From a virus (lineage: Duplodnaviria > Caudoviricetes), in the IMG/VR virus record IMGVR_UViG_3300028887_000080, positions 60,222 through 124,221 of that record: 64,000 bases of DNA, one strand, 5' to 3'. Position 1 is the first letter of the stretch. Each line of letters starts with the position of its first letter. A program made the translations under genes and the position numbers. Positions 24,118 through 63,884 of this stretch are shown in pieces. The notes beneath the pieces were generated by a model. The model made no database searches. It was given only the letters and a program-made list of their open reading frames with translations, and was not told the origin of the DNA.

Positions 24118-24435
24118 TCAGATTTCCGGGTCGACATAATAATCGACGATTATAGGGGCGCCTTCGCCCGCGTATGGCAGCGCCCGAAGCGTGTTGTACG
24201 ATATGTAGTCATACGCCTCGTCCTCGTCCATACCGTCGGCGGTCATAAGTTGTCCGACCATCCTGAACATACTGTATATGTAGCGCCCGTCTGTGTCGAC
24301 GCCGACTATGCAGTTGTCGAACCCGTCGAGTTTTATCGACTCCGGATACATTTCAAACAGGTCGTCGAGAGATATTCTCATCGGAGCGTCCTTGTCAAGC
24401 AGCGTTTTCCCGATTTTGCTTTCAGTGATTTTCAT
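24118..24435 (-). CDS. MRxTxS-tag protein (MKITES) with conserved phage domain
   Basis: DGFDNCIVG...EAYDYISYN...GEGAP. Confidence 0.7.
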   Translation of the reverse strand: MKITESKIGKTLLDKDAPMRISLDDLFEMYPESIKLDGFDNCIVGVDTDGRYIYSMFRMVGQLMTADGMDEDEAYDYISYNTLRALPYAGEGAPIIVDYYVDPEI

Positions 24436-24558
24436 AATATTTCGGCAATTAGACCGCCTGAATGAAGTCAAAGCGGATGTTCAATTTGTTTATTTTATGT
24501 TTTCTGCAACGGAATTATCCCTTTCTGAAATAATATAACAAAAAAATGGAAATTTTTT

Positions 24559-24569
24559 ATTATATTCAA
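24559..24569 (+). promoter_or_regulatory. Putative early/middle promoter ATTATATTCAA
   Basis: Exact 11-mer. Confidence 0.6.
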
Positions 24570-24582
24570 TAAAAGGAATGCT

Positions 24583-24777
24583 ATGGACATCAAATATAGA
24601 AAAGACCACGAATGGACTTCCACGCAGTGCGACCACATCCGCATCCTCGACAATGAGGGAAACGAATACCGCATAACCTGCAACAAGTTCGGGGGGATAG
24701 AGATTCTGTCGGAAGACGGAAGTGTGGCAATCGAACCGATTGTGTCAAACCATTTTGTCATCAAAAGAACGAAGTGA
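24583..24777 (+). CDS. Small hypothetical protein
   Basis: ORF directly after the promoter. Confidence 0.6.
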   Translation: MDIKYRKDHEWTSTQCDHIRILDNEGNEYRITCNKFGGIEILSEDGSVAIEPIVSNHFVIKRTK

Positions 24778-25196
24778 TGCACACCTACAAGAAATTCACG
24801 AAAGACCAAAGAAGCACGTTCTCCTATTGGTTCGCCCATTGGCGGGCGTTCAACGAACTCGCACGCGAACTCGGCGTGTGGAAATTCCGCCACCTGTTCC
24901 ACGATATAGAGAAACCGTTCCTGCGACTTTTTATGGACTACAGGAAAGTGCAGGAAATCCATCGCAGACACAACGCCCACCATCTTGAATATCAAGGCAG
25001 GCGTAATTGGTTGGATATGTACCTTGATTGGGAGTGCTCCCGTTACACGAAAATCGCAAGTCCGAGAACCGCCGTGGAGGAGGCGAACGCGAAGTTGCAG
25101 GACGGAACTATGTCATACAACGACTACTGCGAGTTTATGCGTGTGGCGAGAAACATAAGTAGAAAGGACTATGAAAAAGGAAGCGGACAAGAATAA
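24777..25196 (+). CDS. HD-fold-like protein (DUF5662-like)
   Basis: FHDIEK...HRRHNAHH...DWE. Confidence 0.6.
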   Translation: MHTYKKFTKDQRSTFSYWFAHWRAFNELARELGVWKFRHLFHDIEKPFLRLFMDYRKVQEIHRRHNAHHLEYQGRRNWLDMYLDWECSRYTKIASPRTAVEEANAKLQDGTMSYNDYCEFMRVARNISRKDYEKGSGQE

Positions 25197-25422
25197 ATTC
25201 CCGATTGAGTTCGAGTTCTTGTTTATGAACCATTGGGGCGGCATTTACATTCTCCCTTGTATGAAGTTGTGCGTCAATTACTCAATGCCGACACTCATAT
25301 TACAGTGGTGGGTGTTTCGGTTGGATGTTAAAATATACAAGCATTTGCCGAATTGGTTTATGAAATATGTATGGAGCGTCCTCAACTTCGATTTTATTAA
25401 AAAGAAGAAGTATGACAAGTGA
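25171..25422 (+). CDS. Hypothetical protein
   Basis: Coupled ORF. Confidence 0.5.
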   Translation: MKKEADKNKFPIEFEFLFMNHWGGIYILPCMKLCVNYSMPTLILQWWVFRLDVKIYKHLPNWFMKYVWSVLNFDFIKKKKYDK

Positions 25423-25867
25423 AGAAAAAGATTTATTGCGAAAAGACCTCTGCGCGAGGTTGCCGTATGATACGATTGTAAGCGTTGACAATGGTAAATA
25501 TCGTGAAGATACGAAACTTCGTACATATCATCTTGCAGATTTCAACACTTGGGACGTCAGACCTTATCTCCGCCCGATAAATACCATAACAAAATCGGAA
25601 ATTGCCGATGCGATTAAGTATATTTGTGATACCGATAATGTTGTATGGGACGATGGAACATCTGGTGTAGGATTCTATTTTTATAAATCAGATGGAATTA
25701 AACGCCCATTTGATGATTTCAAATTCAGATTGGGATGTTACGGACCAAAAAATATTGATTGGTTTAATAAATTCCATTTTGACTATCGTGGATTGATACC
25801 GATGGGATTGGCATTGCCATCACCTGAAGGAATGTATGAAACTAAAAGTGAACTAATTCCACCCTAA
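25412..25867 (+). CDS. Conserved Bacteroidota-phage-type hypothetical protein
   Basis: LLRKDLCARLPY...RPYLRP...HFDYRGLIPMGLA; stop lies within the MITE. Confidence 0.65.
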   Translation: MTSEEKDLLRKDLCARLPYDTIVSVDNGKYREDTKLRTYHLADFNTWDVRPYLRPINTITKSEIADAIKYICDTDNVVWDDGTSGVGFYFYKSDGIKRPFDDFKFRLGCYGPKNIDWFNKFHFDYRGLIPMGLALPSPEGMYETKSELIPP

Positions 25868-26795: not shown

Positions 26796-27695
26796 ATGGC
26801 AAACAAAGATTCTCTCGGCGACCGTATGAAAGAATACGAGGGTGTGTCGAGATACAAACTGACACGGCGTATGCCCGTTGTAATCCGCATCGACGGAAAA
26901 TCATTCCATACATTCACAAGATGGTTCAACAAACCCTATGACGTCGTACTGTCCGACACGATGGGACGCACAATGAAATATCTCTGCGAGAATATTCAGG
27001 GATGCGTGTTCGGATACACGCAGTCCGACGAAATCACACTCGTCCTCGTGGACTATGAGAAACTGAACACCGCTGCGTGGTTCGACAACACAGCGCAGAA
27101 GATGTGCAGCATCGCCGCTTCTATGGCGACGATGGCGTTCAACAAGTTCTTCGGCGAGGAGGTCGGCAGGTTCTCAAGCAAAGTGTCCGACCCGCAATGG
27201 TATGACTATTACGGACTGCACCGCCTTGACGGAGGTATAGACCAAGAGCGAATCGCCAAACTCAATGTCACATACCGAAAGGCATACGAACGAGGAGCGA
27301 TGTTCGACGCAAGGGTGTTCAACGTCCCGAAGGAAGATGTGACCAACTGCGTCCTGTGGAGGCAGCAGGACGCGACCCGCAACAGCATTGAGATGCTCGG
27401 ACGCGCATTTTTCACGCACAATCAGTTGTTCAAGAAAAACTGCTCCGACATTCAGGATATGCTGATGACTTGGCACAACATCAACTGGAACGACGTTGAC
27501 ACGCGCTTCAAGCGCGGGTTTTCCTGCATAAGGAAAGAAATGGAGGTTTCTATGCCCGACACCTCAACCGCTTCGCCAACGGCAACCGCATCCTGCGGAA
27601 AGACGACACGACGAGTGTGGGTGTTGGATATGGAGATGCCGATTATCACGCAGGACAGGGACTATATCGACAAACTTGTTTTCATCGGGGAATGA
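26796..27695 (+). CDS. thg1: tRNA(His) guanylyltransferase Thg1-like protein
   Basis: RIDGKSFHTFT, YTQSDEI, FDARVF, WRQQDATRNS. Confidence 0.95.
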   Translation: MANKDSLGDRMKEYEGVSRYKLTRRMPVVIRIDGKSFHTFTRWFNKPYDVVLSDTMGRTMKYLCENIQGCVFGYTQSDEITLVLVDYEKLNTAAWFDNTAQKMCSIAASMATMAFNKFFGEEVGRFSSKVSDPQWYDYYGLHRLDGGIDQERIAKLNVTYRKAYERGAMFDARVFNVPKEDVTNCVLWRQQDATRNSIEMLGRAFFTHNQLFKKNCSDIQDMLMTWHNINWNDVDTRFKRGFSCIRKEMEVSMPDTSTASPTATASCGKTTRRVWVLDMEMPIITQDRDYIDKLVFIGE

Positions 27696-28105
27696 GACTG
27701 ACGGAAAGCAAAATCGTGGATGATATTAGGAGGGACGTCATCAAGGTGACGTTCGCTGTCGACGTGAAGGACAGGAGCGTCATAGATGAGCAATTCATAC
27801 TCGGAAAGTACCCGTTCAACCTGTATTCCGAATACGACCCTGTTGAAAAGCGCAGGTATCTCGAAGCGTGCTTCATTTTCGACGTGAAGGGGTATGAACT
27901 CGCGGTTCCCGTCGGAAAGGGCGGTCTTTACAGAATGCGCGGGGAAGTCTATCCGAACCACGCCTGCACAGACGAGTGGTTAATCGAGGGGAGCAGGGCG
28001 GTGAACTTTATGTCATTCCTGCGGAAATCGAAAGGCACCACCTATCTGCGCATAATAAAGAACGACGGAAACCTTGAGTTTACATTGAACGGCGGTTTAT
28101 ATTGA
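27692..28105 (+). CDS. MRxTxS-tag protein (MRLTES)
   Basis: ATGA overlap with thg1. Confidence 0.7.
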   Translation: MRLTESKIVDDIRRDVIKVTFAVDVKDRSVIDEQFILGKYPFNLYSEYDPVEKRRYLEACFIFDVKGYELAVPVGKGGLYRMRGEVYPNHACTDEWLIEGSRAVNFMSFLRKSKGTTYLRIIKNDGNLEFTLNGGLY

Positions 28106-28112
28106 AATTGAT

Positions 28113-28613
28113 ATGGCAAGACTTACGGACTCGGAAAATATCCGCGACATCCTCTGCGCGGAAACGCAGTACACCGAACTGAAGTCGGAGTTCTACAAAC
28201 GTGTTGTGAACAGTCACTTCAGGGATGTTATGTCCTATGTGAAGGACAGTCGGAACCGCAGGTTGGTGGATGAACTGTATGGGGAACTGAAAGACCTGTG
28301 TTCCGCCTATGTCGGTGTGAACGGTATGGGGCGGAAGTTCGGACTCCTGTTCTACGACGATGGTTTCGGGAACGCAACTATGGAGAGCGTGTTCGCATAC
28401 CACGTCATCGCCAATGTCTGCATCATCCCCAAAAAGAAAGGTCACTACAACGAAACTTCGTTGAAGTCGGCGATGAAGTCCGACGTGCGGATTTTCGATG
28501 CCACACTGACGCGCTTGGTGAATTGGTACAAGAGGTGCGAACAGGAGTATTTCAGATGCGAGTGCACGGACATCGACGGCAACTTCTACCTGTTCGATGA
28601 CTACTGCTTCTAA
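28113..28613 (+). CDS. MRxTxS-tag protein (MARLTDS)
   Basis: 166-aa ORF. Confidence 0.7.
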   Translation: MARLTDSENIRDILCAETQYTELKSEFYKRVVNSHFRDVMSYVKDSRNRRLVDELYGELKDLCSAYVGVNGMGRKFGLLFYDDGFGNATMESVFAYHVIANVCIIPKKKGHYNETSLKSAMKSDVRIFDATLTRLVNWYKRCEQEYFRCECTDIDGNFYLFDDYCF

Positions 28614-28617
28614 AACA

Positions 28618-28648
28618 AAAAACGCAGGGTTTGACGCCTGCGTTTTTT
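28618..28648. terminator. Intrinsic terminator
   Basis: AAAACGCAGG-loop-CCTGCGTTTTTT. Confidence 0.75.
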
Positions 28649-28755
28649 GTTTTGTTGATGTGTTCTGCTACCGCTTCAACCACCGTGACATTGAAAGTGT
28701 TTGAAAACACTTGGTTTGGTTAGTGGTTCAATGGGTTGCAGCGTGAAGTTAATTA

Positions 28756-29337
28756 TTACTTTTGCTTTATCAAGCGAACGGATACGTCAGCAGCATAAGG
28801 TTCATCTATGTCGTAAATTGCGCTAAACCCAGTTGATTTGTCATTGTTTCTAAATTCAAATGTATAAAACAAATATGCGTCTTTGCCATTTTTTCTGTAT
28901 TTTTCAAATGTTGTTGTTAAATAAGTTGCAATTTCATCTTTATGAGGTTCATCTGCGGGTAAAAACAGCACGCCTCTAAAATCATTGGTATAAAAATACC
29001 GGCCATATCTTTCTATTATTGTTTTCTCGCCGTTCCATTCTACATAATCAAATGCAAACTTGCCCCAAATAGAATTGCATTTCATAAGTTCTTCAAAGTT
29101 GCTCTTTGTTGGTAAATCTTCTTTTTTATAGCTGTTCATCGCCATATCATAAGTGATTGTTGAACCATAATACGGGTCATATCCTTTTTTTTGTGAGAAC
29201 TCTGGTTCATTTGTATTTTTCCAAAGCACAGTCCCTCCCATATCAACCCATTCCGAGTTGCTTTTAACTATATTTTCCAATTTTGATATTAAATCATATT
29301 GTTTTGACATTTCGTCAATTCTCATTATATGTGCCAT
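28756..29337 (-). CDS. Putative internal protein (MAHIMRIDEM leader) with DUF1566/Fib_succ_major-like C-type lectin fold; low GC
   Basis: WVDMGGTVLW...LPTKSNFEEL...FLPA...SVRLI. Confidence 0.6.
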   Translation of the reverse strand: MAHIMRIDEMSKQYDLISKLENIVKSNSEWVDMGGTVLWKNTNEPEFSQKKGYDPYYGSTITYDMAMNSYKKEDLPTKSNFEELMKCNSIWGKFAFDYVEWNGEKTIIERYGRYFYTNDFRGVLFLPADEPHKDEIATYLTTTFEKYRKNGKDAYLFYTFEFRNNDKSTGFSAIYDIDEPYAADVSVRLIKQK

Positions 29338-29359
29338 AGGTTCAAATTTATATTTCCAT

Positions 29360-29367
29360 TATTTATA
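29360..29367 (-). promoter_or_regulatory. Late promoter TATAAATA
   Basis: Exact motif. Confidence 0.7.
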
Positions 29368-29380
29368 CGACAAAAAAACA

Positions 29381-29406
29381 AACCCCGCGATTGCTCACGG
29401 GGTTTG
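29381..29406 (-). terminator. Terminator after the tail tube gene
   Basis: AAACCCCGCG...CACGGGGTTT hairpin, T run on the minus strand. Confidence 0.6.
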
Positions 29407-29430
29407 CGGGTTTCCCATTCCGGCGGTCTG

Positions 29431-29985
29431 TTAGAGACCGATGAGTTGTTCGTCCCAATAGTCGCAGCGGAAAGTGAGTTGCGCCTCGGTTGCGTCGCTT
29501 GACGAATAGTCGAGGTCACCGCCGACCTGCAACTGACCTGTCGGGAACACGTCCTTGCAGATGATTTTGCGGTAGATGCTGCCGTCACGGTTGTACTGCA
29601 CGATAATCATACTGCCGACGTACTGCGATTTCATTCCGCTCATACCTGTGAGGGGGTTCCAAATCACGTTGCACCATTTTCTCAATGTGGTGTAGATGTA
29701 GTTTTCGTTCGAGTCGTTCAAGTTCATAGTGAAAGTGACCTGCAAGTCCAAAGTGGTCTTGTCAGGGAACCCTGCGTATGAACGCGTCGCCTGTTTGAAT
29801 TTCTGTTCTGTCGTTGAAACCGACGGGTTGAGCCCGTCAAGTCCAGACACTTGTTTGACGTGTTCAAGCAGAAGAGCTTGGTCGCCTCCTGTCGGAGGGA
29901 ATATCGTGACCTCGAACAATGCCTTGTAGACAGGTTCCCAATGTCTTGTACTTGGTACAGAGTTACTATAATGTGGTAATGCCAT
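29431..29985 (-). CDS. Tail tube protein (T4 gp19-like)
   Basis: 184 aa; EPVYKALFEV...LDYS...LTFRCDYW. Confidence 0.8.
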   Translation of the reverse strand: MALPHYSNSVPSTRHWEPVYKALFEVTIFPPTGGDQALLLEHVKQVSGLDGLNPSVSTTEQKFKQATRSYAGFPDKTTLDLQVTFTMNLNDSNENYIYTTLRKWCNVIWNPLTGMSGMKSQYVGSMIIVQYNRDGSIYRKIICKDVFPTGQLQVGGDLDYSSSDATEAQLTFRCDYWDEQLIGL

Positions 29986-30039
29986 AATCCATTTATATAT
30001 TTTTCGGTTGGAACGCCTGTGTGGATTTCGTTCCGTTAT

Positions 30040-30047
30040 TATTTATA
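30040..30047 (-). promoter_or_regulatory. Late promoter TATAAATA
   Basis: Exact motif. Confidence 0.7.
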
Positions 30048-30124
30048 TGAGGTGTTTTTTTGTTCCATTTTTTTGTTATATTAAATCGGAATTATCCCTT
30101 TTAGTCTTGTAAAAATGTGAGTGA

Positions 30125-30132
30125 TATAAATA
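30125..30132 (+). promoter_or_regulatory. Late promoter TATAAATA inside the element
   Basis: Exact motif 21 nt before the tnpB ATG. Confidence 0.55.
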
Positions 30133-30152
30133 TAGTACAGTATTTCAATCAG

Positions 30153-31364
30153 ATGGAAAGAACGTACACATACAAGTTCAGGTTGTATCCGAACAAGGAG
30201 CAAGAGATTTATCTTGCCAATGTATTTGGATGTTGCAGACTTGTGTACAACCATTTCCTTGATGAGAAGAAACAACAATATGAAGAAACAAAAACAAGTG
30301 ATTCATACAATGTTCAATCAGGTAAACTGACACTACTCCGCAAGACTGATGGGTATGAGTTTCTAAAAAATGTTCCTTTACAAGTTTTGCAGTGTAGTTT
30401 ACGAAATATGCACACTGCATACGAGAATTTTTATAAACACAGAAGTTCCTATCCGAAGTTCAAGAACAGAAGGGACAGACAGTCGTTCAAACTACCACAG
30501 GAGCAATCCTTCAAAATAAAAGATAACAAACTTTACATCCCAAAACTAAAAAGCGGGATTGACATTGTAATGGAACGTGGGATTGTAGGCAAAATTTGCT
30601 TTGTAACCATCTCAAAAAACAAGGCAGGCAGATACCACATAGCAATTACTGTTAAACAGGATTACATACCTTATGGAAAGACCAATCGTTCAGTCGGTCT
30701 TGACCTCGGCATAAAGGATTTCGTCATCACAAGTGACGGAATGAAATACAAGAACCACAGGAGCATAATCAGGACATTAAAACGCAAACTAAAACATAAC
30801 CAAAGGCATCTGTCAAGAAAGATACACGGAAGCAAGAGATACGAAAACCAAGTGTTGAAATGCAACCGAATCTATCAGAAGATAACAGATGTCAAGACCG
30901 ATTACATACACAAAATCACTAATGAACTTGTCAGAAACTATGATGTGATAAAGGTTGAAGATTTGAACATCAGAGGGATGATGAAGAACCACAAGTTGGC
31001 AGAGGCAATATCAGAATGTAATTGGTATCAGTTCATACAGACGCTTGAATACAAGTGCTTGTGGAATGAAAAGGAACTTATAAAGATAGACCGTTTCTAT
31101 CCGTCAAGTCAGATGTGCAGTGAATGTGGTTATGTTGAGAAAAAAGTCAGAAACCTAAATGTAAGGGAATGGACTTGCTGCAACTGCGGTTGTCATCACG
31201 ACAGGGATGTCAATGCGGCAAGGAACATTTTGAAATATAATTCGGTGAGGAACACCGAAAACAGTCGTGGAGTTGTGAAACAACTGAATGAAAAACCTAA
31301 TTTGATTAGTGATTGTTCGGACAACTGTGAAGCGACTATTGAACTTGATAATTTACAAGATTAA
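30153..31364 (+). CDS. tnpB: RNA-guided endonuclease TnpB
   Basis: YKFRLYP HTH, VGLDLG, VEDL, CSECG/CCNCG zinc finger, DRDVNAA. Confidence 0.95.
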   Translation: MERTYTYKFRLYPNKEQEIYLANVFGCCRLVYNHFLDEKKQQYEETKTSDSYNVQSGKLTLLRKTDGYEFLKNVPLQVLQCSLRNMHTAYENFYKHRSSYPKFKNRRDRQSFKLPQEQSFKIKDNKLYIPKLKSGIDIVMERGIVGKICFVTISKNKAGRYHIAITVKQDYIPYGKTNRSVGLDLGIKDFVITSDGMKYKNHRSIIRTLKRKLKHNQRHLSRKIHGSKRYENQVLKCNRIYQKITDVKTDYIHKITNELVRNYDVIKVEDLNIRGMMKNHKLAEAISECNWYQFIQTLEYKCLWNEKELIKIDRFYPSSQMCSECGYVEKKVRNLNVREWTCCNCGCHHDRDVNAARNILKYNSVRNTENSRGVVKQLNEKPNLISDCSDNCEATIELDNLQD

Positions 31365-31397
31365 AAGGGATAATTCCGTATTAAATAAATACGAAGT

Positions 31398-54521: not shown

Positions 54522-54536
54522 AACTTTTCCTTTTTA

Positions 54537-54547: not shown

Positions 54548-54557
54548 GCAATTTTTT

Positions 54558-54998: not shown

Positions 54999-55471
54999 AG
55001 TTCCGCTGTTATGTTCATCCAACCATTGCCTCCAGCAGTCCAGAAACGCATTCTTGTTTCCGACATCTTGACTGCGAACTCCACAGCGTCCTCATCGTTG
55101 CAGAAAGGAACTGTCTGCGAGAAAGGAACCATCTGCGTAAATGCAAACCGCATTTCAAGCACATCGCCCGCGACATCCGCGGATACAATGTCCGCTTTCC
55201 AATTATAGTATTTGTATTTCTCAACAACCTTTTCGAGGTACAAAGACGCGTGCTTGTTGTATATCTTGTCGAGAATGGTCTTGGAGTTATCGCCGAAGTA
55301 TCTCGTGCGCATAGTGAATGCCCACTCTTTCTTCACGATTGTGAAATTCATATTGTCCAATGGGTTTTCGTACTCATCTTCCGTCAGAATGTTTATTCCG
55401 TCGAATTTGACAAACACGCTGTTTTTGTCCATCGCCGCGTCAAATACGTTTTTGCTTTCAGTGATTCTCAT
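54989..55471 (-). CDS. Tag-array protein (MRITES)
   Basis: DKN.V / TRYFG subfamily. Confidence 0.7.
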   Translation of the reverse strand: MRITESKNVFDAAMDKNSVFVKFDGINILTEDEYENPLDNMNFTIVKKEWAFTMRTRYFGDNSKTILDKIYNKHASLYLEKVVEKYKYYNWKADIVSADVAGDVLEMRFAFTQMVPFSQTVPFCNDEDAVEFAVKMSETRMRFWTAGGNGWMNITAELCG

Positions 55472-55907
55472 AATGTTTCAGCATTTTGATATACATCACC
55501 ACGTTGCCTTTCTCTATGTCGAAATCCACGGTTTCGTCCGACAGTAATTTGCAAAGTCGCTCCGCCATTTCTTGCGTCATACGAAAGTCGCACGTTATAA
55601 GTTGCAATATCAGTTCTCCGTCTACAACATTGCCGCCTTCGACAGTGTACACCTTCGGAAATTCGTCATTGCCGCGTTCGTCCAAGATTCCGTACAGCTT
55701 GAGTCTTGTGTACCTGTTTCTCACGTTGTTCAGGACTTCCCCGCTTTTGTTTCCGAAGAACCTTGTGTGCAGCGTGAAGAAATACCGCACCAATTCTCTG
55801 TTGTCCACGCTGATGTCATCCGCCCAATTCGTGCCGAGGAACTTCACATTCACGTGGTGTTTGTCAAGCAGATTACGCGAAATATCTTTGTTGTCAGTCA
55901 GTCTCAT
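55458..55907 (-). CDS. Tag-array protein (MRLTDN)
   Basis: Close paralogue of 56339-56776. Confidence 0.75.
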   Translation of the reverse strand: MRLTDNKDISRNLLDKHHVNVKFLGTNWADDISVDNRELVRYFFTLHTRFFGNKSGEVLNNVRNRYTRLKLYGILDERGNDEFPKVYTVEGGNVVDGELILQLITCDFRMTQEMAERLCKLLSDETVDFDIEKGNVVMYIKMLKHYENH

Positions 55908-56352
55908 AAATCTCGTACATATTTACGTAAATGAAATCCGCATTTGTCTTTACTACATCAATATCAAACCTTGTTCCTGAAACGACCTCCGCGTCATATT
56001 GGGCGCACTCGTAGTCGGGATACGCATCCGTTGAAATCTGTATGACTATGTTGTCGTCGTCCCTGTCGATGGCGTCCACTGTGAATATAAAGGTCTCAAG
56101 CGCGTTGAGTTTTGAGTAGCAGGAGTTCGCCCTGTTGATGAAAAGCGCCATACCCCTTATCGTGTGAACCCCCATTTGCAATTTATATATCTGTTCAACG
56201 ACGTCCTTTGTATGCACGCCATAGAACTTGCTCCTGACGGTGAATATGTACTTGCCCCTCCGTCCTGTCGGGAACGTGCCGTTGAACATCATCTCAACGG
56301 CGTTTCTGTCCTCCATCGCCCTTGCCATATCCTTGTTTTCAGTCAGTCTCAT
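55894..56352 (-). CDS. Tag-array protein (MRLTEN)
   Basis: DRNAV / SKFYG. Confidence 0.7.
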   Translation of the reverse strand: MRLTENKDMARAMEDRNAVEMMFNGTFPTGRRGKYIFTVRSKFYGVHTKDVVEQIYKLQMGVHTIRGMALFINRANSCYSKLNALETFIFTVDAIDRDDDNIVIQISTDAYPDYECAQYDAEVVSGTRFDIDVVKTNADFIYVNMYEIYETD

Positions 56353-56776
56353 AGCATTTGTGCATTTTGATATACATCACCTCATTGCCTCTCTCTATGT
56401 CGATGTCGAACCTCACAAATTCATTCGACAGGATTTCACAAAGGGTCTCCGCCCTGTCGCAGTTCATATTGGGCATAGAGGTCTCGAACTCCAACGTCAA
56501 CCCTCCGTTTTCAACCTTCCCGTCGTTCACAATGTATTTCATACACGAAAGGTCGTTATGTTTTTCAAAAATGTTGCAGAGTATGAGTCTTGTGTACCTG
56601 TTTCTCACGTTGTTCAGGACTTCGGCGCTTTTTTCACCGAAGAACTTTGTGTGCAGCGTGAAAAAGTAAAATTGCCGTCCGCGGCACATATCGTTGTACG
56701 TTCCAGTCGTTCGCACCTTTACACGGTTGGCGTCCAACAGGTTCTGCGAAATATTTTTGTTGTCAGTCAGTCTCAT
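56339..56776 (-). CDS. Tag-array protein (MRLTDN)
   Basis: FFTLHTKFFG..S.EVLNNVRNRYTRL. Confidence 0.75.
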   Translation of the reverse strand: MRLTDNKNISQNLLDANRVKVRTTGTYNDMCRGRQFYFFTLHTKFFGEKSAEVLNNVRNRYTRLILCNIFEKHNDLSCMKYIVNDGKVENGGLTLEFETSMPNMNCDRAETLCEILSNEFVRFDIDIERGNEVMYIKMHKCYETD

Positions 56777-57295
56777 AGTCCTTCCATTTTGAACGTCGCT
56801 CTCCATTTGATTTCAAATGTGTCTATGTCATAGACACCCATACTTGTCACGGTTATGTTTCGGTGTTTGATTTTCGCAGACCTGTCGGACAGGTATTTGA
56901 CAATCAGTTTCCTGCACGCGGCGACTTCTGCAAAGTCGTTTTGGTCGGACTTCGGGTATTTCCACGCTTTCACCAATCCGCTGTTCCCGTAAAAATCGAC
57001 CGCTGTCGTGGAGTTTTTGTTTTGGAACGCAAGCAATGTGTCGCAGATTGTCTTCATATCACCGTCCACCATTTTCAATTCGACAGGAATGTATGCGACA
57101 AGAGTGTTTGTTGTGATTTCCATTTTTTTTGTTCTTTATCACGACACCCACAACAGTGTCCGGCATCACACACCCGTCGTTGTATAACGAAACAACCTGT
57201 TGGACGCCATACTTCGGATTCTTGTCAAAGAAATCGCATATATCGTCGAACAGGGACTTGAGTGTTGTCATATTATTGCTATCGCTTATTCGCAT
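56773..57295 (-). pseudogene. Tag-array gene (MRISDS) split by an A8 run into ORFs 57059-57295 and 56773-57123
   Basis: Removing one A at 57123-57130 fuses the ORFs into about 173 aa. Confidence 0.5.
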
Positions 57296-57735
57296 AGTTC
57301 CTTCAGTTTTATGTTCATCCAACACTCTCCTTCCTCGATTTCAAAACCGACTTTCGCCGATGAGACTTTCTCCGCGAAATCAAATGCAGATGACTCACCC
57401 TTCATAGCGGCGGGGTCGATGAACGAGAATGACAGGGCAAGTTCACCGCCGACCGCCTTCACCATATAAACGTAACCCCTGTACGGATAGTAATGGCATT
57501 TCATAATATCGTTGAAATACAGTTCCACATACCTGCATCCGATTTTTCCGACAGTCTCTTCAGGGTGCTTTCCGAAAAACGATGTGTACAGCGTGAATTT
57601 GTACTCGTTGGATAACACCTCGCCTCCGTAGTGCGTCTCGCGGCGCTTGTCCACCCCGTCGAAATGCACCCACACTTGGTCACTGCCAAGCGTCCTGCAT
57701 TGTTTTGAAAAATTCCTGTTATCACTCAATTTCAT
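57286..57735 (-). CDS. Tag-array protein (MKLSDN)
   Basis: FTLYTSFFG. Confidence 0.7.
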   Translation of the reverse strand: MKLSDNRNFSKQCRTLGSDQVWVHFDGVDKRRETHYGGEVLSNEYKFTLYTSFFGKHPEETVGKIGCRYVELYFNDIMKCHYYPYRGYVYMVKAVGGELALSFSFIDPAAMKGESSAFDFAEKVSSAKVGFEIEEGECWMNIKLKELCE

Positions 57736-58169
57736 AAGGCGATGGCGTAAAGGTAAAAATAAGGGTCGTCGTCGATGCCGCTGTCTTCAAATACAAATCG
57801 CTTCGAGGACACCTCCGCCGCTAACTTTTTCGCGTCGGTGATAACCCCCGAAAATGTATACGCCGGGGTTTGGAAAACAATTTCGAGCGTCTCTCCGAAG
57901 CATTGCGATGACATAACCTCAAAATTGTGGCGGTTGTCGCATACGTTTTTCCTCCCTTGCGTAAAGAAGTGTATGGACGCGAAACCCGCTTTCAATTTCT
58001 TTGCGACGGATTCGCTCTCCTTCCCGAAAAACGTGGTCGTCAGTTTGAAAATGTACGAAGTCCACACTCGGTTGATGTCGTACAGTCTGTCCAAACGCAG
58101 GAACTCCATATCAACGATGTTCCTGTCCGTTATCGCGTCCAATGTGTTTTTGTTTTCAGTCAGTCTCAT
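57732..58169 (-). CDS. Tag-array protein (MRLTEN)
   Basis: DAITDRNIVDMEFL shared with the next gene. Confidence 0.75.
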   Translation of the reverse strand: MRLTENKNTLDAITDRNIVDMEFLRLDRLYDINRVWTSYIFKLTTTFFGKESESVAKKLKAGFASIHFFTQGRKNVCDNRHNFEVMSSQCFGETLEIVFQTPAYTFSGVITDAKKLAAEVSSKRFVFEDSGIDDDPYFYLYAIAL

Positions 58170-58594
58170 ATTGCAGTCATATTAAGATAACGATAAGGCT
58201 GGTGGGACAAGTCGAACTTGAACCGTTTTTCGGAAACCATAGACGCTATGAATTTCGCCTCGTCCATACTCTTAATCTGCTCATCGTCGAACGTGCCAAT
58301 CTTCATTTTGAGCAGTCCGCGCTCCGCGCTCACCGACGCGATTCCATAGGTCTTGCTTATCAAATCTCCTAACTTCCCGTTGTCCGTCACATACAGGAAG
58401 GCGTGCTTGTGTTCAATCTCCTTTTTGACCGCTTCGCTTTCCTTCCCGAAAAAAGGGGTCGTTAGCAGGAAGAAATACTGCGTCACCGACGCATCGTACC
58501 CGTCGTGTATAGTTCTCGAATGCAGAAACTCCATATCAACGATGTTCCTGTCCGTTATTGCGTCCGATATGTTTCCGCTTTCCGTAAGTCTCAT
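58166..58594 (-). CDS. Tag-array protein (MRLTES)
   Basis: DAITDRNIVDMEFL; LTTPFFGKESE. Confidence 0.75.
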   Translation of the reverse strand: MRLTESGNISDAITDRNIVDMEFLHSRTIHDGYDASVTQYFFLLTTPFFGKESEAVKKEIEHKHAFLYVTDNGKLGDLISKTYGIASVSAERGLLKMKIGTFDDEQIKSMDEAKFIASMVSEKRFKFDLSHQPYRYLNMTAI

Positions 58595-59013
58595 TTTCCG
58601 CAGTCGTTTTCGTTCATAAGTTCATTCAAATCAATAAAAAGACATCCGTTTTTTCCGTCCTGACTGATGGCGCAAGTCCATTTCATTTCCGATATTTTCA
58701 TCGCGTCGCTATCGGCGTCATTGTCTTGGTTCTCGTGCCAGCATTGGAGTTCGAGTCGGTTTCCGTATGCGACCGCATTTCTTACGGCATACACGCTCCT
58801 CGACATATTTCTCGACTCGACGGCAAGGTCGTCTATGAATATGTAAGCACCCACGTTGTCGTTAATAACATCCGCAACCGACAATGACTCGTCCCCGAAA
58901 CAGTAGAGCGTGAACAGGAACTCCGCCTTTTCCCTCACTCCGAGAAATTCCGCATAGACCCTGTTCTTGTCCGTTATGGTGTCCGCAATCCGTTTGTTTT
59001 CAGTTATCCTCAT
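58591..59013 (-). CDS. Tag-array protein (MRITEN)
   Basis: EFLFTLYCFG. Confidence 0.75.
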   Translation of the reverse strand: MRITENKRIADTITDKNRVYAEFLGVREKAEFLFTLYCFGDESLSVADVINDNVGAYIFIDDLAVESRNMSRSVYAVRNAVAYGNRLELQCWHENQDNDADSDAMKISEMKWTCAISQDGKNGCLFIDLNELMNENDCGK

Positions 59014-59022
59014 AATATGTGT

Positions 59023-59041
59023 GATATATCAATGATATATC
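59023..59041. repeat. GATATATC-N3-GATATATC box
   Basis: GATATATC AAT GATATATC between promoter and ATG. Confidence 0.85.
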
Positions 59042-59047
59042 GTTTTA

Positions 59048-59058
59048 TTGAATATAAT
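59048..59058 (-). promoter_or_regulatory. Putative early/middle promoter ATTATATTCAA
   Basis: Exact 11-mer. Confidence 0.6.
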
Positions 59059-59064
59059 GGAAAT

Positions 59065-59496
59065 TCATTTTTTGTGCACTTCGTACACAAGCAGTCGCGT
59101 CACGGGTTTTCTTCCGTAGTCGAGCGTGACCTTCCAATCCGTGTTCGATATGATGAGCGCGTCGCTTTCCGCACAATTCAGGTAACAGTGCTTGCACGTC
59201 AGGCACAGTTTTCCCTTTGCTGTGAACGCAAACATAACGTTCCATACAAACCGCTTCATATTGTTGATTTTGGACGGCGTGCCGTCGAGTTCGGCGCTTT
59301 TGTAGAAAACCAATGTCGTGGGGCGCGAGTTCAGAACGTCCGCTATGCGTTCGCTGTCCTCGCCGAAACAACCAAGCGTGAACAGGAACTCCGTGTGAAT
59401 GGGTCTTCCGTAGGCGTGCGCCGTCCTTATATACTGCGCGTATATCCTGTTTTTGTCCAAGATTTGACTTGATATTCCGCTGTCGGTTATTCTCAT
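59065..59496 (-). CDS. Tag-array protein (MRITDSG)
   Basis: EFLFTLGCFG. Confidence 0.75.
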   Translation of the reverse strand: MRITDSGISSQILDKNRIYAQYIRTAHAYGRPIHTEFLFTLGCFGEDSERIADVLNSRPTTLVFYKSAELDGTPSKINNMKRFVWNVMFAFTAKGKLCLTCKHCYLNCAESDALIISNTDWKVTLDYGRKPVTRLLVYEVHKK

Positions 59497-59951
59497 AGTT
59501 CAGTCAGACTTATGTGGAACGAAGATGTGAAACAGACGAGCAAGCAACCGAACCTCACTGACGAAAGCATATCGGCGACCTTTGCCGAATCCGAGAAAGG
59601 ACTGTGCGTCGCCTGTATTACGAGGTATTTGTTGAGATAAGACCAAGCAGCGCCCTTGACATAATAGCGGTCGCACACCTCGTCGGCAAGTATGCCGCTG
59701 TTCGGTTTCTTTGTCACAATTATGTATCCGTCAAACCTGTTCAGCACTTTGAGCGCTTTCATAGGTTTTACGCTCTTGATTATCTCGCACTCCCCATCTG
59801 TGTAGGTGAATTGCTCAATGTCCCCATATATGTGGAAAAGGAACGTCGAAGTCGGGACGCCGTTGGCGCAAGGGACATCCCCATAATGGAAGACTTCCAC
59901 AATGTTCTGGTTACGCAAAGATTCCGATAGACCGCTGTCAGTTATTTTCAT
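59493..59951 (-). CDS. Tag-array protein (MKITDSG)
   Basis: ATG at 59951, ATGA overlap. Confidence 0.7.
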   Translation of the reverse strand: MKITDSGLSESLRNQNIVEVFHYGDVPCANGVPTSTFLFHIYGDIEQFTYTDGECEIIKSVKPMKALKVLNRFDGYIIVTKKPNSGILADEVCDRYYVKGAAWSYLNKYLVIQATHSPFSDSAKVADMLSSVRFGCLLVCFTSSFHISLTEL

Positions 59952-60400
59952 ACTTTTTCTATTATGTCCAAAAAATAAAGACCTCGGAATTTCCGAAGTT
60001 GGCAAATGAACGACGCGTTTGAAATGATGTCGGCGTCTCTCTGCGGGTCTGTCTGACGATACTGATATTCACATTCAATCACGGCGAAATCGCCCTCCGA
60101 CCGAGCACCTGTTATCCTGAAGGTGCGGGACTCAAGTTCATCCAACCTGCTTTTAGACCTGTAGCAGGGGTGCTGCCTCATAATAGTTATGAACGCACCG
60201 TCACCTGCGGCGGAATTTATGGTTTCGGCGGCAATGTCGGCGCCGATTGCTTTGCGCGAACTGTTTTCGTCAAAGCACCTGATTGGACATTTAACTGCGA
60301 ACTCGTATATGTTTGAACGAACGCCCGCGCCGCAGTACCAAACCGACACATTGTTCGCTCCGAGCACATCGCTTTTAATCCTGCTGTCTGTTATTCTCAT
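59948..60400 (-). CDS. Tag-array protein (MRITDSR)
   Basis: VKCP / DPQRDA shared with 60842-61288. Confidence 0.7.
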   Translation of the reverse strand: MRITDSRIKSDVLGANNVSVWYCGAGVRSNIYEFAVKCPIRCFDENSSRKAIGADIAAETINSAAGDGAFITIMRQHPCYRSKSRLDELESRTFRITGARSEGDFAVIECEYQYRQTDPQRDADIISNASFICQLRKFRGLYFLDIIEKV

Positions 60401-60858
60401 ACGGTTTCGGTTAATCTTAAAAAGCACCCCTCCCCAACTTTCGAGATTGAGCACTTGAACATTGTGTCCGAAATAAGTTCGGCGTCGGCGGCGGGGTTGC
60501 GCACGACGCGGTGGAATGCACCTATCGTGAAACGGTCGTCCTCAAACAAGATTGCATCGCTGTCTATTTTGAAATACCTGCTGTCAAGTTTTGACAGTCT
60601 TCCGTTTTTCACGGAAACCACAGTCAGGTAAGACGGGTGCGTTTTGAGCACTCCGCACACATCCTTCGCGGTAAGCTCCGCCCGTGTGAATGAAACGCGT
60701 TCATTGTCGTAAAACTCCGTTTCGACGGAACCTCTTATCGTGAATGTGAAATAGCAGCACGGACTACCTTCATTGTCAGGGACAATCCCGCACCAATTCG
60801 CAAACACGGGGTTTCGCCAGTGCAACGCATCCGATATTCCGCTATTCATCAATCTCAT
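60397..60858 (-). CDS. Tag-array protein (MRLMNSG)
   Basis: FTIRG / LKTHPS shared with 61285-61719. Confidence 0.7.
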   Translation of the reverse strand: MRLMNSGISDALHWRNPVFANWCGIVPDNEGSPCCYFTFTIRGSVETEFYDNERVSFTRAELTAKDVCGVLKTHPSYLTVVSVKNGRLSKLDSRYFKIDSDAILFEDDRFTIGAFHRVVRNPAADAELISDTMFKCSISKVGEGCFLRLTETV

Positions 60859-61288
60859 ATAATTCAAAAATATATCTGTCGCTTCTTTTTGCGATGGCAA
60901 CTATGTACGAGGCGTCTGAAAGGAGTCCAGCGTCCTTTTGAGGGTCGGACTTCTCCACGTTGTGCACGCAATGCAATGACGCCCAATCCCCGTAGTGTAT
61001 CGAGTTTATCACATCGAACGACATACGTCCCACGCCGTGCAGTCTTGTGTGCCTTTTGTCTGTAGCGTAAAAAACGACCCCGCTCCCCTCACGCATCATT
61101 TCCGACAATTCCTCCGCGTCTATGTCGAAGTTGCCATCGACGCCCAAATTCAGGAACGGGCACTTCACCGTGACGATGAAAATCTCCTTTTCGGTTTCGT
61201 TCCAATCCCTGCACAATCCGCAGTATTGCACCCCCACGCCTGTGTCCGTAAGAACATCGTTCCTAATTCCGCTGTCCGTCAGTCTCAT
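60842..61288 (-). CDS. Tag-array protein (MRLTDSG)
   Basis: 148-aa ORF. Confidence 0.7.
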   Translation of the reverse strand: MRLTDSGIRNDVLTDTGVGVQYCGLCRDWNETEKEIFIVTVKCPFLNLGVDGNFDIDAEELSEMMREGSGVVFYATDKRHTRLHGVGRMSFDVINSIHYGDWASLHCVHNVEKSDPQKDAGLLSDASYIVAIAKRSDRYIFELYEIDE

Positions 61289-61719
61289 ACCGCTTTAACC
61301 AATCCAAGATAACAATAATGCCCGAATTTGTCGAACCGAATGCTGTATCTTGAGTTTGAAATGCGTTCGGCGGTCTCTTCTGGGTCTATCAGGAACTCCT
61401 TGTACGCCCCTATCAGGAGGTCGTCCCCGTTGCACACCACGGTCTTTATGTGGAAAGTGTAGTTGCTCGTGAGCACGTTCCTGCTCGGCAGTACCGTCAG
61501 ACACGACGGGTGGGACTTCAGCATACTGCACACTTCCTGCACGCTGCGCGTCTCAATTCTGTCCCTGAACGGGTCGTATTCGCCGATTATGCCTCTTATT
61601 GTGAATACGAAAAACAGCACGGGTTTGCCTTCGCCGTCGTGCTCGACGCCGCCATAGTGGGCGAACACATAGTTCGTGTCATATAACCCGTTTTCCATTC
61701 CGCTTTCCGTTATCCTCAT
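61285..61719 (-). CDS. Tag-array protein (MRITESG)
   Basis: 144-aa ORF. Confidence 0.7.
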   Translation of the reverse strand: MRITESGMENGLYDTNYVFAHYGGVEHDGEGKPVLFFVFTIRGIIGEYDPFRDRIETRSVQEVCSMLKSHPSCLTVLPSRNVLTSNYTFHIKTVVCNGDDLLIGAYKEFLIDPEETAERISNSRYSIRFDKFGHYCYLGLVKAV

Positions 61720-61741
61720 TTTCTTTTTCGTTTCCTTTTAT

Positions 61742-61752
61742 TTGAATATAAT
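61742..61752 (-). promoter_or_regulatory. Putative early/middle promoter ATTATATTCAA
   Basis: Exact 11-mer. Confidence 0.6.
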
Positions 61753-61762
61753 GGAAACTGCG

Positions 61763-62239
61763 TCAGGTTTCATAATCCTGCACGCCGAGCGATATGAAAG
61801 ACTTTGCCTTTATGACCTCAAGGCGTGTGATGTGAAGTCCGTCCATATCCACAATCCTCCTGTCGGTCAAATACCCGATTAGTTTTTCCTTGAGCGTTTC
61901 CCTTCTTTGCCTGTCATCACCGCACAGCGCGGCGACGCCGCACGTCATCGGCGAATCGAAGTCCGCGCTCATAAACAGATGGTTGAGGTTGCGCGAGTTT
62001 TTAGCGAGGTGCAGTATCTCACAGACCTCCTCCGACAATGTGTCGGAACAGGCGTCGAAGAAAATGCCTGCGTGGAAGCAGTCAGAAACGTCGTTTCCCC
62101 TGCGGAATGAGATGTAGAGGAGATATTCGCATTCCACGCAGTTGTCGTCGAAGAAGAACTTTCTCCGCTTGTTCTCACTGAAACCTTCAGGAAGCGTTTT
62201 TTTCAGGCGTTCGCCCATTTGTGCATCCGTTATCCTCAT
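61763..62239 (-). CDS. Tag-array protein (MRITDA), LPxG..FFD subfamily
   Basis: LPEGF...FFFDD. Confidence 0.7.
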   Translation of the reverse strand: MRITDAQMGERLKKTLPEGFSENKRRKFFFDDNCVECEYLLYISFRRGNDVSDCFHAGIFFDACSDTLSEEVCEILHLAKNSRNLNHLFMSADFDSPMTCGVAALCGDDRQRRETLKEKLIGYLTDRRIVDMDGLHITRLEVIKAKSFISLGVQDYET

Positions 62240-62709
62240 ACCATTTCTTTCTGCTTATATTCCACAATCTCATTGATTTTGTATACGCCGATAACTTCTA
62301 TTTCCCAACCTTTTAGGTCGGAGTCGGTGTATTTTCCGAGATATTCGTACACCATTTCCTCAATCCTGACGGCGGTTTCGCAGATGTCGCCGCGACCGTG
62401 GTCGGACAACCAATCCCCGTTCTGCTTAATCCATCTGAAATCGGAACGGTCGAACAGGTTGAACTTCCGCAGAAGTTCAAAAAGGTCCGCTGTCATATTG
62501 CGTCTGTCGTACTCAAAAATGATTCCTATCCAAAGTTTCGGGGAAATGAAATTGCTCTCCGTTTCACCGAACCTGATTAAAAGCACGCGGTCACCCTCAC
62601 CGCAGTACGGGTCGAAGAAATACCTCCTGTGTGAGTTCTCCTTCAACCCTTCGGGCAGTTTCCTCTTGAGAACGTCGTCCCCCATTCCGCTGTCAGTTAT
62701 CCTTGCCAT
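62236..62709 (-). CDS. Tag-array protein (MARITDSG), LPxG subfamily
   Basis: ATG at 62709; RKLPEG...RYFFD. Confidence 0.7.
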   Translation of the reverse strand: MARITDSGMGDDVLKRKLPEGLKENSHRRYFFDPYCGEGDRVLLIRFGETESNFISPKLWIGIIFEYDRRNMTADLFELLRKFNLFDRSDFRWIKQNGDWLSDHGRGDICETAVRIEEMVYEYLGKYTDSDLKGWEIEVIGVYKINEIVEYKQKEMV

Positions 62710-62726
62710 AGTCGTTATATGAACTG

Positions 62727-63197
62727 TTACTCGAACCTCTGTATATATTTCACGACGTCCTCCGGTGTGCAGATGTTGATATTCTCCATTTCCCACCCCG
62801 CCAATTCGACACCGAAATAGGTTTCGATATACTCCAAGAGAAATTTCTCCGCCCTGCGGCATATTTCGTATTTTTTCCCGATTCCCACAGAATACATCCA
62901 TTCCCTGTTGTGTTTCGCGAACCATATCTCCGTTCCGTCGATTGCGCATACGTCCAATATGATTGGACGGAGGTCGTCCGACACGTTGCCGATGTCGTTG
63001 TCGAATATGACGCATATCCGTAGTTTGGGGTCGCCGCCGAAGACTTTGCCTTTGTTGAACCTTACGGAAAGCACCCTGTCGCAGTCCCTCGAAGCGCAGT
63101 CGAAGAAATACTTCCTGTACGGCGTCTCGTAAAAACCATTCGGCAGTTTCCTGCGCGTCGCTTCCTTTGCGATTCCGCTGTCTGTTATCCTTGCCAT
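62727..63197 (-). CDS. Tag-array protein (MARITDSG), LPxG subfamily
   Basis: RKLPNG...KYFFD. Confidence 0.75.
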   Translation of the reverse strand: MARITDSGIAKEATRRKLPNGFYETPYRKYFFDCASRDCDRVLSVRFNKGKVFGGDPKLRICVIFDNDIGNVSDDLRPIILDVCAIDGTEIWFAKHNREWMYSVGIGKKYEICRRAEKFLLEYIETYFGVELAGWEMENINICTPEDVVKYIQRFE

Positions 63198-63201
63198 AGT
63201 T

Positions 63202-63438
63202 TCAGTGTTTGATGCGCCAATCCAAGGTGTCGCCCACGGACACTCTGTCGAATGTGTGCCCCCCGACCTCTATGCGTATGATGTCGGTCGGATTTTCCGC
63301 GTCCGAAAGTTCAAGGACGCATTGCGCCCGTCCGTTGATATTCTTCGACTCCACGACCCACTTGTCGCTTTCGGTCGAGGTGTATGGTTGGCAACCGAAC
63401 ATTGCCGCCGCAAGTGCCGTTAACATAAACCTTTTCAT
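63202..63438 (-). CDS. Small lipoprotein
   Basis: Signal peptide with lipobox AMFGC. Confidence 0.65.
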   Translation of the reverse strand: MKRFMLTALAAAMFGCQPYTSTESDKWVVESKNINGRAQCVLELSDAENPTDIIRIEVGGHTFDRVSVGDTLDWRIKH

Positions 63439-63884
63439 AGGAAAAACTTGTTGTATTCATCCAACTTCAATATGTGTGATTCACAAAGCGTCATATCGTC
63501 CGTTATGGTCTCTCCGTTAAGTGTCAGGTATTCCCTGACCATTTTTTCCAATCTGACCGCCCTGTCGTAGTCGCCCGCGAAATATCCCTTGTATATCCTT
63601 TCATAGTGGACGGACAGCATACCGTTAACCCACTGTCTCTCCGTAATCCTGTGCAACTCCAACAGGTCGGGTATGTATTCGGACGTTTCGTATGACTTTC
63701 TGTCGAACAGGACGCCTGACACATAGACCCCGATTTCGGAAGACCTGAAACTGCACAGCAGAACCCACAGCGTGTTGCCGCCGCAGTGCTTGTCATAGAC
63801 GAAGCGGCGCGACGGGTCGTTCGCCATACCGTCGGGGAGTTTCCTTCCGGAGTTGATTTCCATTCCGCTGTCGGTTATCCTCAT
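63435..63884 (-). CDS. Tag-array protein (MRITDSG), LPxG subfamily
   Basis: ATG at 63884; RKLPDG...RFVYD. Confidence 0.7.
   Translation of the reverse strand: MRITDSGMEINSGRKLPDGMANDPSRRFVYDKHCGGNTLWVLLCSFRSSEIGVYVSGVLFDRKSYETSEYIPDLLELHRITERQWVNGMLSVHYERIYKGYFAGDYDRAVRLEKMVREYLTLNGETITDDMTLCESHILKLDEYNKFFL

Follow-up and report, generated by a model that had tools for sequence, protein, structure and literature searches.

The stretch of DNA analysed here, called the window, comprises 64,000 nucleotides (nt) and forms the last 64 kb of the IMG/VR viral contig G000 (124,221 bp). Coordinates refer to the window unless another sequence is named. The public runs that contain the stretch are bovine gut metagenomes, a search of its DNA against GenBank phages gave no match, and the phage is an uncultured T4-like jumbo phage of the cattle gut. 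The completeness of G000 (39% by CheckV) implies a genome of ~320 kb. The contig encodes a T4 gp21-type S77 prohead protease (33363-35456) and an FtsH-like AAA+/M41 protease, together with Thg1, a RimK-like ligase, a PurA-like synthetase and a nucleoside deoxyribosyltransferase. At least 31 genes of G000, 29 in the window and two upstream of it, begin with the same short peptide, hereafter the tag. Its consensus is MR[IL][TS][DE][SNT], with a weak extension to positions 7-8 ([GK] then [IMN]).

When all ATG, GTG and TTG starts of the window were scanned for M(A)[RK][IL][TS][DE], 28 starts matched, each at the coordinate given in an earlier reading of this stretch (the original prediction). A 29th is the degenerate MRLMNS at 60858. 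Thus, all 29 tagged starts listed in that reading are present, including the 20 that it placed between 54998 and 63884. Based on amino-acid composition, chance would yield ~0.13 tagged starts in ~175 genes, or ~0.003 for the strict form. Leaving aside the true starts of two over-long open reading frame (ORF) calls, the motif occurs only once internally. For 18 of the 31 genes, no start codon is available between the upstream in-frame stop and the tag ATG, and the tag starts thus appear sound by ORF logic.

Replacements within the tag are nearly all conservative (R/K, I/L, T/S, D/E, S/N/T), and position 5 is Asp in 19, Glu in 11 and Asn in one of the 31 tags. Four variants from three families, the MAR variants, carry R-I/L-T/S-D/E-S one codon later. 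As a general rule of methionine aminopeptidase, MAR forms would mature to ARITDS, equal in length to MRITDS, so that the register of the tag from the protein end would be kept. A tag-like sequence, RFSDSDF with Phe at position 3, follows an internal Met of the minus-strand ORF at 4268-4792, beside a radical-SAM operon.

We compared the parts behind the tag, hereafter the bodies, by BLASTP without their first eight residues. They fell into a 15-member family (F15, 54558-61719), a four-member family (F4, 61763-63884), a two-member family of ~310-aa (amino-acid) proteins (F2, 48981-50861) and 10 singletons, which reproduces the dissimilar body groups proposed earlier. The tagged genes, and the promoter-like motif ATTATATTCAA where it heads their operons, are the following.

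24118-24435, minus strand: tagged gene, 105 aa, MKITES..., an 18-aa tag-plus-linker extension on a body of the phrog_13182 / YNTLRALPYAGEGAPI family
27692-28105, plus strand: tagged gene, 137 aa, MRLTES..., ATGA start overlapping the stop of the Thg1 gene
28113-28613, plus strand: tagged gene, 166 aa, MAR variant MARLTDS..., tag without out-of-frame stops
45187-45672, minus strand: tagged singleton, 161 aa, MRLTDSG...
45644-45871, minus strand: tagged singleton, 75 aa, MRLTDSQ..., only the first ~39 nt retained in relative L037, with the body replaced
45889-46293, minus strand: tagged singleton, 134 aa, MAR variant MARLSES..., missing from relative L037
48981-49913, minus strand: F2 member, 310 aa, N-terminal domain modelled as all-helical
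49917-50861, minus strand: F2 paralogue, 314 aa, MRISDT..., start directly after a DUF2201 metallopeptidase/vWA gene
53989-54162, minus strand: tagged short ORF, 57 aa, MRLTET...
54558-54998, minus strand: F15 member, 146 aa, MRISDL..., strain joint 14 nt past the ATG
54989-55471, minus strand: F15 member, 160 aa
55458-55907, minus strand: F15 member, 149 aa
55894-56352, minus strand: F15 member, 152 aa, exactly lost in runs X4 and X5
56339-56776, minus strand: F15 member, 145 aa
57059-57295, minus strand: tagged ORF, 78 aa, MRISDSN..., inside the F15 array, overlapping ORF 56773-57123
57286-57735, minus strand: F15 member, 149 aa, MKLSDN...
57732-58169, minus strand: F15 member, 145 aa
58166-58594, minus strand: F15 member, 142 aa, the one modelled (beta-rich)
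58591-59013, minus strand: F15 member, 140 aa, first gene behind the motif at 59058
59065-59496, minus strand: F15 member, 143 aa, an extra tagged gene inserted just before it in relative L011
59493-59951, minus strand: F15 member, 152 aa, MKITDS...
59948-60400, minus strand: F15 member, 150 aa
60397-60858, minus strand: F15 member, 153 aa, degenerate tag MRLMNS
60842-61288, minus strand: F15 member, 148 aa
61285-61719, minus strand: F15 member, 144 aa, first gene behind the motif at 61752
61763-62239, minus strand: F4 member (LPxG...FFD), 158 aa
62236-62709, minus strand: F4 member, 157 aa, MAR variant
62727-63197, minus strand: F4 member, 156 aa, MAR variant
63435-63884, minus strand: F4 member, 149 aa
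G000 21637-22032: tagged gene upstream of the window, MRISDSG, first in its operon
G000 27573-28109: tagged gene upstream of the window
61742-61752, minus strand: ATTATATTCAA promoter-like motif, heads the upper F15 operon
59048-59058, minus strand: ATTATATTCAA motif followed by the palindrome GATATATCATTGATATATC, heads the lower F15 operon
54537-54547, minus strand: ATTATATTCAA motif before a membrane-protein gene and the tagged ORF at 54162
48959-48969, minus strand: ATTATATTCAA motif, heads the Met/Gly-rich, phrog_2971 and PurA-like genes and three tagged genes

Two places within these arrays hold other genes. At 56773-57295 (minus strand) an untagged ORF of 116 aa runs in a different frame across part of the 78-aa tagged ORF, and run X5 is without 56786-57701; this pair may be a remnant, a decayed or rearranged member of the F15 array. 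At 63202-63438 (minus strand), within the F4 array, a 78-aa protein with a lipoprotein-type signal (...AAAMFGC...) is encoded, and it is found at the same place in the relative L159.

Profile comparisons between the groups of bodies, with ten residues cut, gave no hhalign probability above 28% (F4 against the G000 27573 gene), a weak negative by itself, as most profiles are shallow. AlphaFold2 modelled the F15 protein, from a 33-sequence alignment, as beta-rich, with a mean predicted local distance difference test score (pLDDT) of 84 and a predicted template modelling score of 0.79. The F2 model was poor overall (mean pLDDT 58); its residues 10-135 were modelled as helices only, at block-mean pLDDT values that lie mostly at 74-92 but dip at 31-50. 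Both models place the tag outside the folded part, as a low-confidence overhang. As residues 1-12 of F15 and 1-9 of F2 have pLDDT values below 50, and as the two models differ, the tag of these two families is not modelled as the first strand of one common fold. The bodies of the 33 aligned F15 sequences are ~25% identical, yet all six tag columns (1-6) rank within the top 16 of 142 for conservation.

No usable structural match was found for the F15 model among the PDB, BFVD and 48,161 representative chains (best Z 5.8, best Foldseek E 3.8e-3), and the fold search with the F2 model gave no usable neighbour (best Z 6.2, to unrelated helical proteins). The ESM Atlas returned scores of at most 0.80 and just a lead to a subtilisin-prodomain-like fold. 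When all tagged proteins were searched against Pfam and PHROGs, the single accepted match was that of one body to phrog_13182; matches to GNAT (E 0.0013), PAS, ANTAR and Gp23 were below the cut-offs and were rejected. The statement that no described family matches this set thus stands for Pfam and PHROGs, which cover neither the tag nor the bodies bar that one. Two other features considered for the N-termini were discarded. The helical moment behind the tag is no different from that of untagged N-termini (p = 0.27), which does not support an amphipathic helix, and the D-S-G/K of the tag does not fit the Bacteroides O-glycosylation motif D-[ST]-[AILMTV], the proteins being without signal peptides.

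To follow the tagged genes between strains, we compared contigs of other bovine-gut runs over 45000-64000 and aligned the relatives L011, L037 and L038. In runs X4 and X5 the 55894-56352 gene is exactly missing; the joint is at 55893/56339, and the 15 nt that fit both sides are the two tags. In other strains the body of the 48981-49913 gene is swapped for 954 other bases, with the break 11 nt past the ATG (49903), and another strain joint, at 54985, lies 14 nt past the ATG of the 54998 gene. In L038 a chimeric gene begins as the 55907 gene and continues with the 54998 body. L011 has gained a tagged gene just ahead of the 59496 gene, whose first 23 nt are duplicated. The 46293 gene is absent from L037, where a new body follows the initial ~39 nt of the 45871 gene and the place of the 45672 gene is taken by a different tagged gene (MKISDSD...). 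The chimeric or inserted genes of L038, L011 and L037 all break within 20-40 nt of the start. Thus, the tag-coding DNA is a preferred recombination joint for the loss, gain and replacement of genes between strains.

Grafting of the tag is clear for the gene at 24118-24435. Besides phrog_13182, its body matches a 90-aa protein without a tag from the relative G001, the gp313 protein of Tunturiibacter phage Tunturi_5 and another 14 database proteins. Ten of 11 aligned relatives are without the tag, starting at about residue 15-19 of the window protein or carrying unrelated extensions, and the first 18 residues are common only to its 94% orthologue. As members of the wider family lack the tag, it was grafted onto this body. 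The extension, MKITESKIGKTLLDKDAP, is similar to F15 proteins over their ~16 N-terminal residues, with LLDK at equal distance, which makes the 5' end of an F15 gene its most likely source. The tag is the native N-terminus of the F15 family, more distant relatives included, and it reached other genes through recombination in the first 10-50 bases of the reading frame. It stands on at least four unrelated kinds of body.

These data bear on the idea that all tagged genes descend from one fast-evolving ancestor and that only the N-terminus is still recognisable. Most tagged genes are small, clustered, lineage-specific ORFans, as such a superfamily would be, and the weak F4 similarity to the G000 27573 gene could be a trace of it. 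Nevertheless, the beta-rich and all-helical models differ, the groups share no profile similarity, the 24118-24435 body belongs to a wider tag-less family, and the chimeras and strain joints show that tags are exchanged. We consider this explanation highly improbable.

The tag has a narrow distribution. Profile and word searches of 1.84 billion representatives gave 30 matches for F15, two for F2 and nine for F4, all in close relatives of the same clade. All full-length small F15 matches begin with the tag or have it just behind a short upstream extension of the ORF call. Five of six tagged proteins had no tblastn match in GenBank phages, and a 721-aa protein had no relative in IMG/VR. The DNA pattern ATGAGACTGACNGAMAGC gave one chance match in a scan of IMG/VR; in metagenome contigs, the matches listed were only single chance matches in unrelated contigs.

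The complete 413-kb genome G001, whose core proteins are 45-80% identical to those of G000, has no tag and none of the tagged bodies except the untagged copy of the grafted one. Two further G001-like fragments have no tag match, and a near-identical third gives just the two pattern matches of G001 itself. G001 does have the FtsH-like protease (45% identity), so that co-occurrence does not point to the AAA+/M41 protease as the partner of the tag, one of the candidates put forward in the original prediction. G001 possesses a leader of its own: ~41 of its proteins, of 85-637 aa, start with the 24-residue M-K/E-I-L-x-S-E-Q-Y-I-N-E-K-L-N-I-Q-P-V-S-K-D-R-L. They are encoded in arrays (loci L016-L036; e.g. 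28428-33117, 49794-61706 and 176630-180934) whose first gene lies behind TATAAATA, the T4 late-promoter octamer. No leader of this type was found in the sampled 124 kb of G000. Arrays of a leader plus variable bodies thus seem to be a habit of the clade, with differing leaders and promoter classes. In one G001 protein (302551-303084), a MTHIKRIDEM leader is joined to a NIQPVTKERL part.

We then asked at which level the tag is conserved. Between families, the identity of tag codons reaches 77% over positions 1+2, compared with 42% over position 3. The amino-acid identity of tags is 0.57 between families versus 0.55 within them, and that of the next three residues is 0.18. Arg is encoded by AGA, AGG, CGA, CGC or CGG, Thr by all four ACN codons and Ser by both AGC and TCG. 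With third positions far freer than positions 1+2, selection appears to act on the tag peptide, as had been claimed. The accompanying dismissal of any DNA-level role was not borne out, as the tag bases are recombination joints and also hold the stop codons of upstream genes.

These stop codons are at the heart of another reading, in which the first ~15 bases are a portable start junction that serves the DNA and mRNA through stops in both other frames, restart and microhomology, the peptide being a passenger upheld by concerted evolution. CTG-A, ATA-A and ACT-GA in the tags create TGA or TAA in the two other frames. Of the 31 tags, 25 have an out-of-frame stop at nt 2-4 and 23 have one at nt 8-10; in the arrays, overlapping upstream genes terminate within the next gene, at its nt 2-4, 8-10, 12-14 or 15-17. 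The stop-creating codons are over-used relative to the bodies of the same genes (CTG 11/15 versus 31%, ACT 10/24 versus 12%), as are AGC (17/19 versus 22%) and AGA (19/28 versus 19%), and the strain joints described above fall at the tags. A junction would not require the restraint seen at positions 1+2, nor the constancy of residues irrelevant to the stops, namely G at nt 5, C at nt 11 and Ser6. The stop template could equally accommodate Val (GTG/GTA) or other A-initial codons, none of which is seen. Furthermore, the peptide is kept in three tags without stops and in the four MAR variants, which shift the register. First-in-operon tags are intact though they have no upstream ORF to terminate: that of the G000 21637 gene, MRISDSG, reads CGC ATC AGC GAC AGC GGG and is devoid of out-of-frame stops. 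The sequence upstream of the tag ATG is not conserved, the conserved element beginning at the ATG and being coding. A junction with a passenger peptide, the main rival of the reading that we favour, would account for the codon bias and the joints, but we regard it as unlikely.

The codon choices could also reflect a translation ramp, i.e. five or six first codons, or a nascent peptide, optimal for early elongation or re-initiation, to which early genes would converge or which they would inherit. Untagged genes of the phage share an A-rich 5' bias (AGA 49% versus 22%, ATA 51% versus 33%, AAA 79% versus 52%), and the tag uses AGA, ATA, GAA and GGA. In work of Verma and colleagues from 2019, the choice of codons 3-5 reportedly altered yield by up to orders of magnitude. 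This general bias accounts for part of the codon bias of the tag, but not for CTG, ACT and AGC, of which CTG and AGC are not A-rich choices. Moreover, ~140 other genes of the phage, highly expressed late ones included, do without the tag, as does G001 entirely, and the MAR variants shift the codon register and keep the peptide. A ramp is thus a very unlikely explanation. The role of the tag DNA as a recombination joint explains the spread of the tag and probably part of its codon bias.

The promoter-like motifs set the tagged genes apart from the structural genes. ATTATATTCAA, usually as TTTTT-ATTATATTCAA-TAAAA, occurs 14 times on the contig, five of them in 45187-63884, and lies ahead of the tagged operons (61752, 59058, 54547 and 48969) as well as of the G000 21637 gene. 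TATAAATA occurs 38 times on G000, 20-35 nt before structural and leader-bearing genes; in the contig motif scan it was found neither in the 18.7-kb tagged block 45187-63884 nor before the other tagged genes. The non-late promoter class proposed for the tagged genes is thus upheld. In the window they come after the genes for Thg1, the PurA-like synthetase and the DUF2201/vWA protein. L159, which extends past the end of G000, carries a ATTATATTCAA operon in which four more tagged genes, with new bodies, immediately precede the DNA ligase gene; a further ATTATATTCAA heads its F4 array, and its genes with late-type leaders are located behind TATAAATA. Based on these motifs, the tagged genes are probably early or middle rather than late.

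Other features of these regions are worth recording. At 7713-7726, ATTATATTCAA ends 2 nt before the ATG of the 6706-7713 gene, compared with 13-35 nt before the start elsewhere; owing to this short gap, some ATTATATTCAA transcripts could be leaderless or nearly so. The palindrome GATATATCATTGATATATC (59020-59047, 53875-53902 and also before 17805) directly follows several ATTATATTCAA motifs and precedes one; it may be an operator or a 5' hairpin. In other strains, recombination has taken place between the copies at 53913 and 59058. In L159, a single untagged gene of 377 aa (11467-12600) replaces the whole F15 array behind ATTATATTCAA. A trio at 46297-48923 codes for the Met/Gly-rich protein, the phrog_2971 protein (vWA in the original prediction) and the PurA-like synthetase (phrog_1211, labelled 2-aminooxy adenylosuccinate synthetase). 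It is conserved at 60-70% in G001 (137019-139699), and the tagged genes that flank it are not conserved there.

The non-late context also bears on whether the tag is a capsid-targeting leader, a short relative of the late leaders of the phage (MxHI[MK]RIDEM and ...YDEFVxxVNE), through which proteins would enter the prohead like the internal proteins of T4, with cleavage after [IL]-x-[DE] by the S77 enzyme. The phage has such a gp21-type protease, and its other N-terminal leaders sit behind T4-type late promoters. [IL]-[TS]-E fits the T4 cutting rule, generally given as [LIV]-x-E, the MRI-D-E of the late leader resembles MRI-T-E, and with ~41 late-promoter genes bearing another long leader in G001, leader loading seems a habit of the clade. 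Nevertheless, T4 gp21 cuts after Glu, whereas position 5 of the tag is Asp in 19 of 31 cases and Glu in just 11. The block contains no TATAAATA, and the neighbours of the tagged genes are those for the ligase, Thg1, the PurA-like synthetase and the deoxyribosyltransferase, behind the other motif. The likeness to the late leader amounts to 11 of 18 bases over six codons, within chance, and descent of the tag from MTHIMRIDEM is not supportable on that basis. We consider it quite unlikely that the tag is a prohead leader.

The explanation that we favour, with a probability of roughly 0.45, is that the tag is a post-translational recognition handle: a short linear motif by which accessory proteins of the early or middle class would be docked or recognised. 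It is conserved, modelled as disordered, located outside the domain and present on unrelated proteins, as expected of short linear motifs. The peptide would be kept because one common partner reads it after translation; this partner might be a docking hub, a modifying enzyme, or an unfoldase or protease that times the turnover of early effectors. Native to F15, the tag was grafted onto other bodies via recombination at the 5' ends of genes, and any body grafted behind it would be plugged into the same pathway. The same bases hold the stops of overlapping upstream genes and serve as joints between strains.

Several observations weigh against a recognition handle. CTG, AGC and ACT are over-used in the tag beyond the general A-rich 5' bias. 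Since the tag DNA is both a recombination joint and a stop/start junction, concerted evolution or a nucleotide-level constraint could be behind part of its conservation. The F2 model, with its mean pLDDT of 58, is poor overall. G001 lacks the tag and, bar one, the tagged bodies, yet it shares core genes including that of the FtsH-like protease, and the co-occurrence comparison with G001 points to no phage-encoded receptor. Finally, the expression timing is deduced from promoter-like motifs. The probability that remains is left for readings beyond those presented here.

A bolder proposal, possible but tentative, is that the tag constitutes a second protein-addressing system separate from capsid targeting. 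The six-residue handle would plug a rapidly exchangeable set of early effectors into one machine, and the 15-20 tag bases would double as a genetic socket for new bodies. The machine could be of the host or of the phage and could act, for instance, by timed destruction, modification or delivery to a hub. In such a system a coding sequence and a recombination site would have co-evolved into one plug-in module.

Leaders shared between phage proteins are known mainly from the T4 capsid-targeting sequence, borne by a handful of late proteins. That sequence, present on the internal proteins IPI, IPII and IPIII and on Alt and removed by gp21, is likewise a short N-terminal peptide on unrelated, non-essential and fast-evolving proteins. 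The present phage, itself T4-like, has an S77 protease and late promoters of the TATAAATA type, and the aliphatic-x-acidic pattern of the tag is similar. In contrast, judging from motifs, no late promoter precedes the tagged genes. With Asp as the usual acidic residue, the tag does not reproduce the aliphatic-x-Glu ending of the capsid-targeting sequence. The tag comprises just 6-8 residues and has more than 31 bearers in 39% of a genome, versus a handful. What sets this phage apart is that the tag occurs in a non-late context and that one set of bases serves at once as tag, as stop/start junction and as recombination joint. A different tag here marks a large, fast-turning set of non-late ORFans.

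The N-terminal signals read by AAA+ proteases, such as the N-motifs of ClpX and the N-degrons of ClpS, are likewise unstructured, position-specific and found on diverse proteins. The Met-basic-aliphatic beginning of the tag recalls one class of ClpX signals reportedly described by Flynn and colleagues in 2003. Beyond residue 3, however, the tag is not known to fit any described class, and the FtsH-like protease of the phage does not co-occur with it. If the tag is a recognition handle, an early effector repertoire could be found by sequence searches, and a six-residue probe could be used to fish out the machine to which it is addressed. The tag and its joint would then also provide an example of phage gene capture and expression in which both functions reside in one element.

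The closest parallel for the genetic behaviour of the tag is provided by the PeSL cassettes of the hyperplastic regions of T4-type phages, non-coding promoter plus stem-loop units located between genes, as described by Arbiol et al. 2010 (PMC2839356) and Comeau et al. 2014 (PMC4122927). These are also short conserved sequences next to small variable early ORFs, and the indels and replacements between close strains break there. The tagged genes share this behaviour, their indels and replacements breaking at the conserved element, but the tag is not a non-coding promoter with a terminator stem-loop. Its joint consists of the first 15-40 coding bases, constrained at the peptide level, whereas PeSL units are non-coding (PMC2839356; PMC4122927). 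Hyperplastic gene arrays can thus be organised around a coding element instead of a non-coding boundary.

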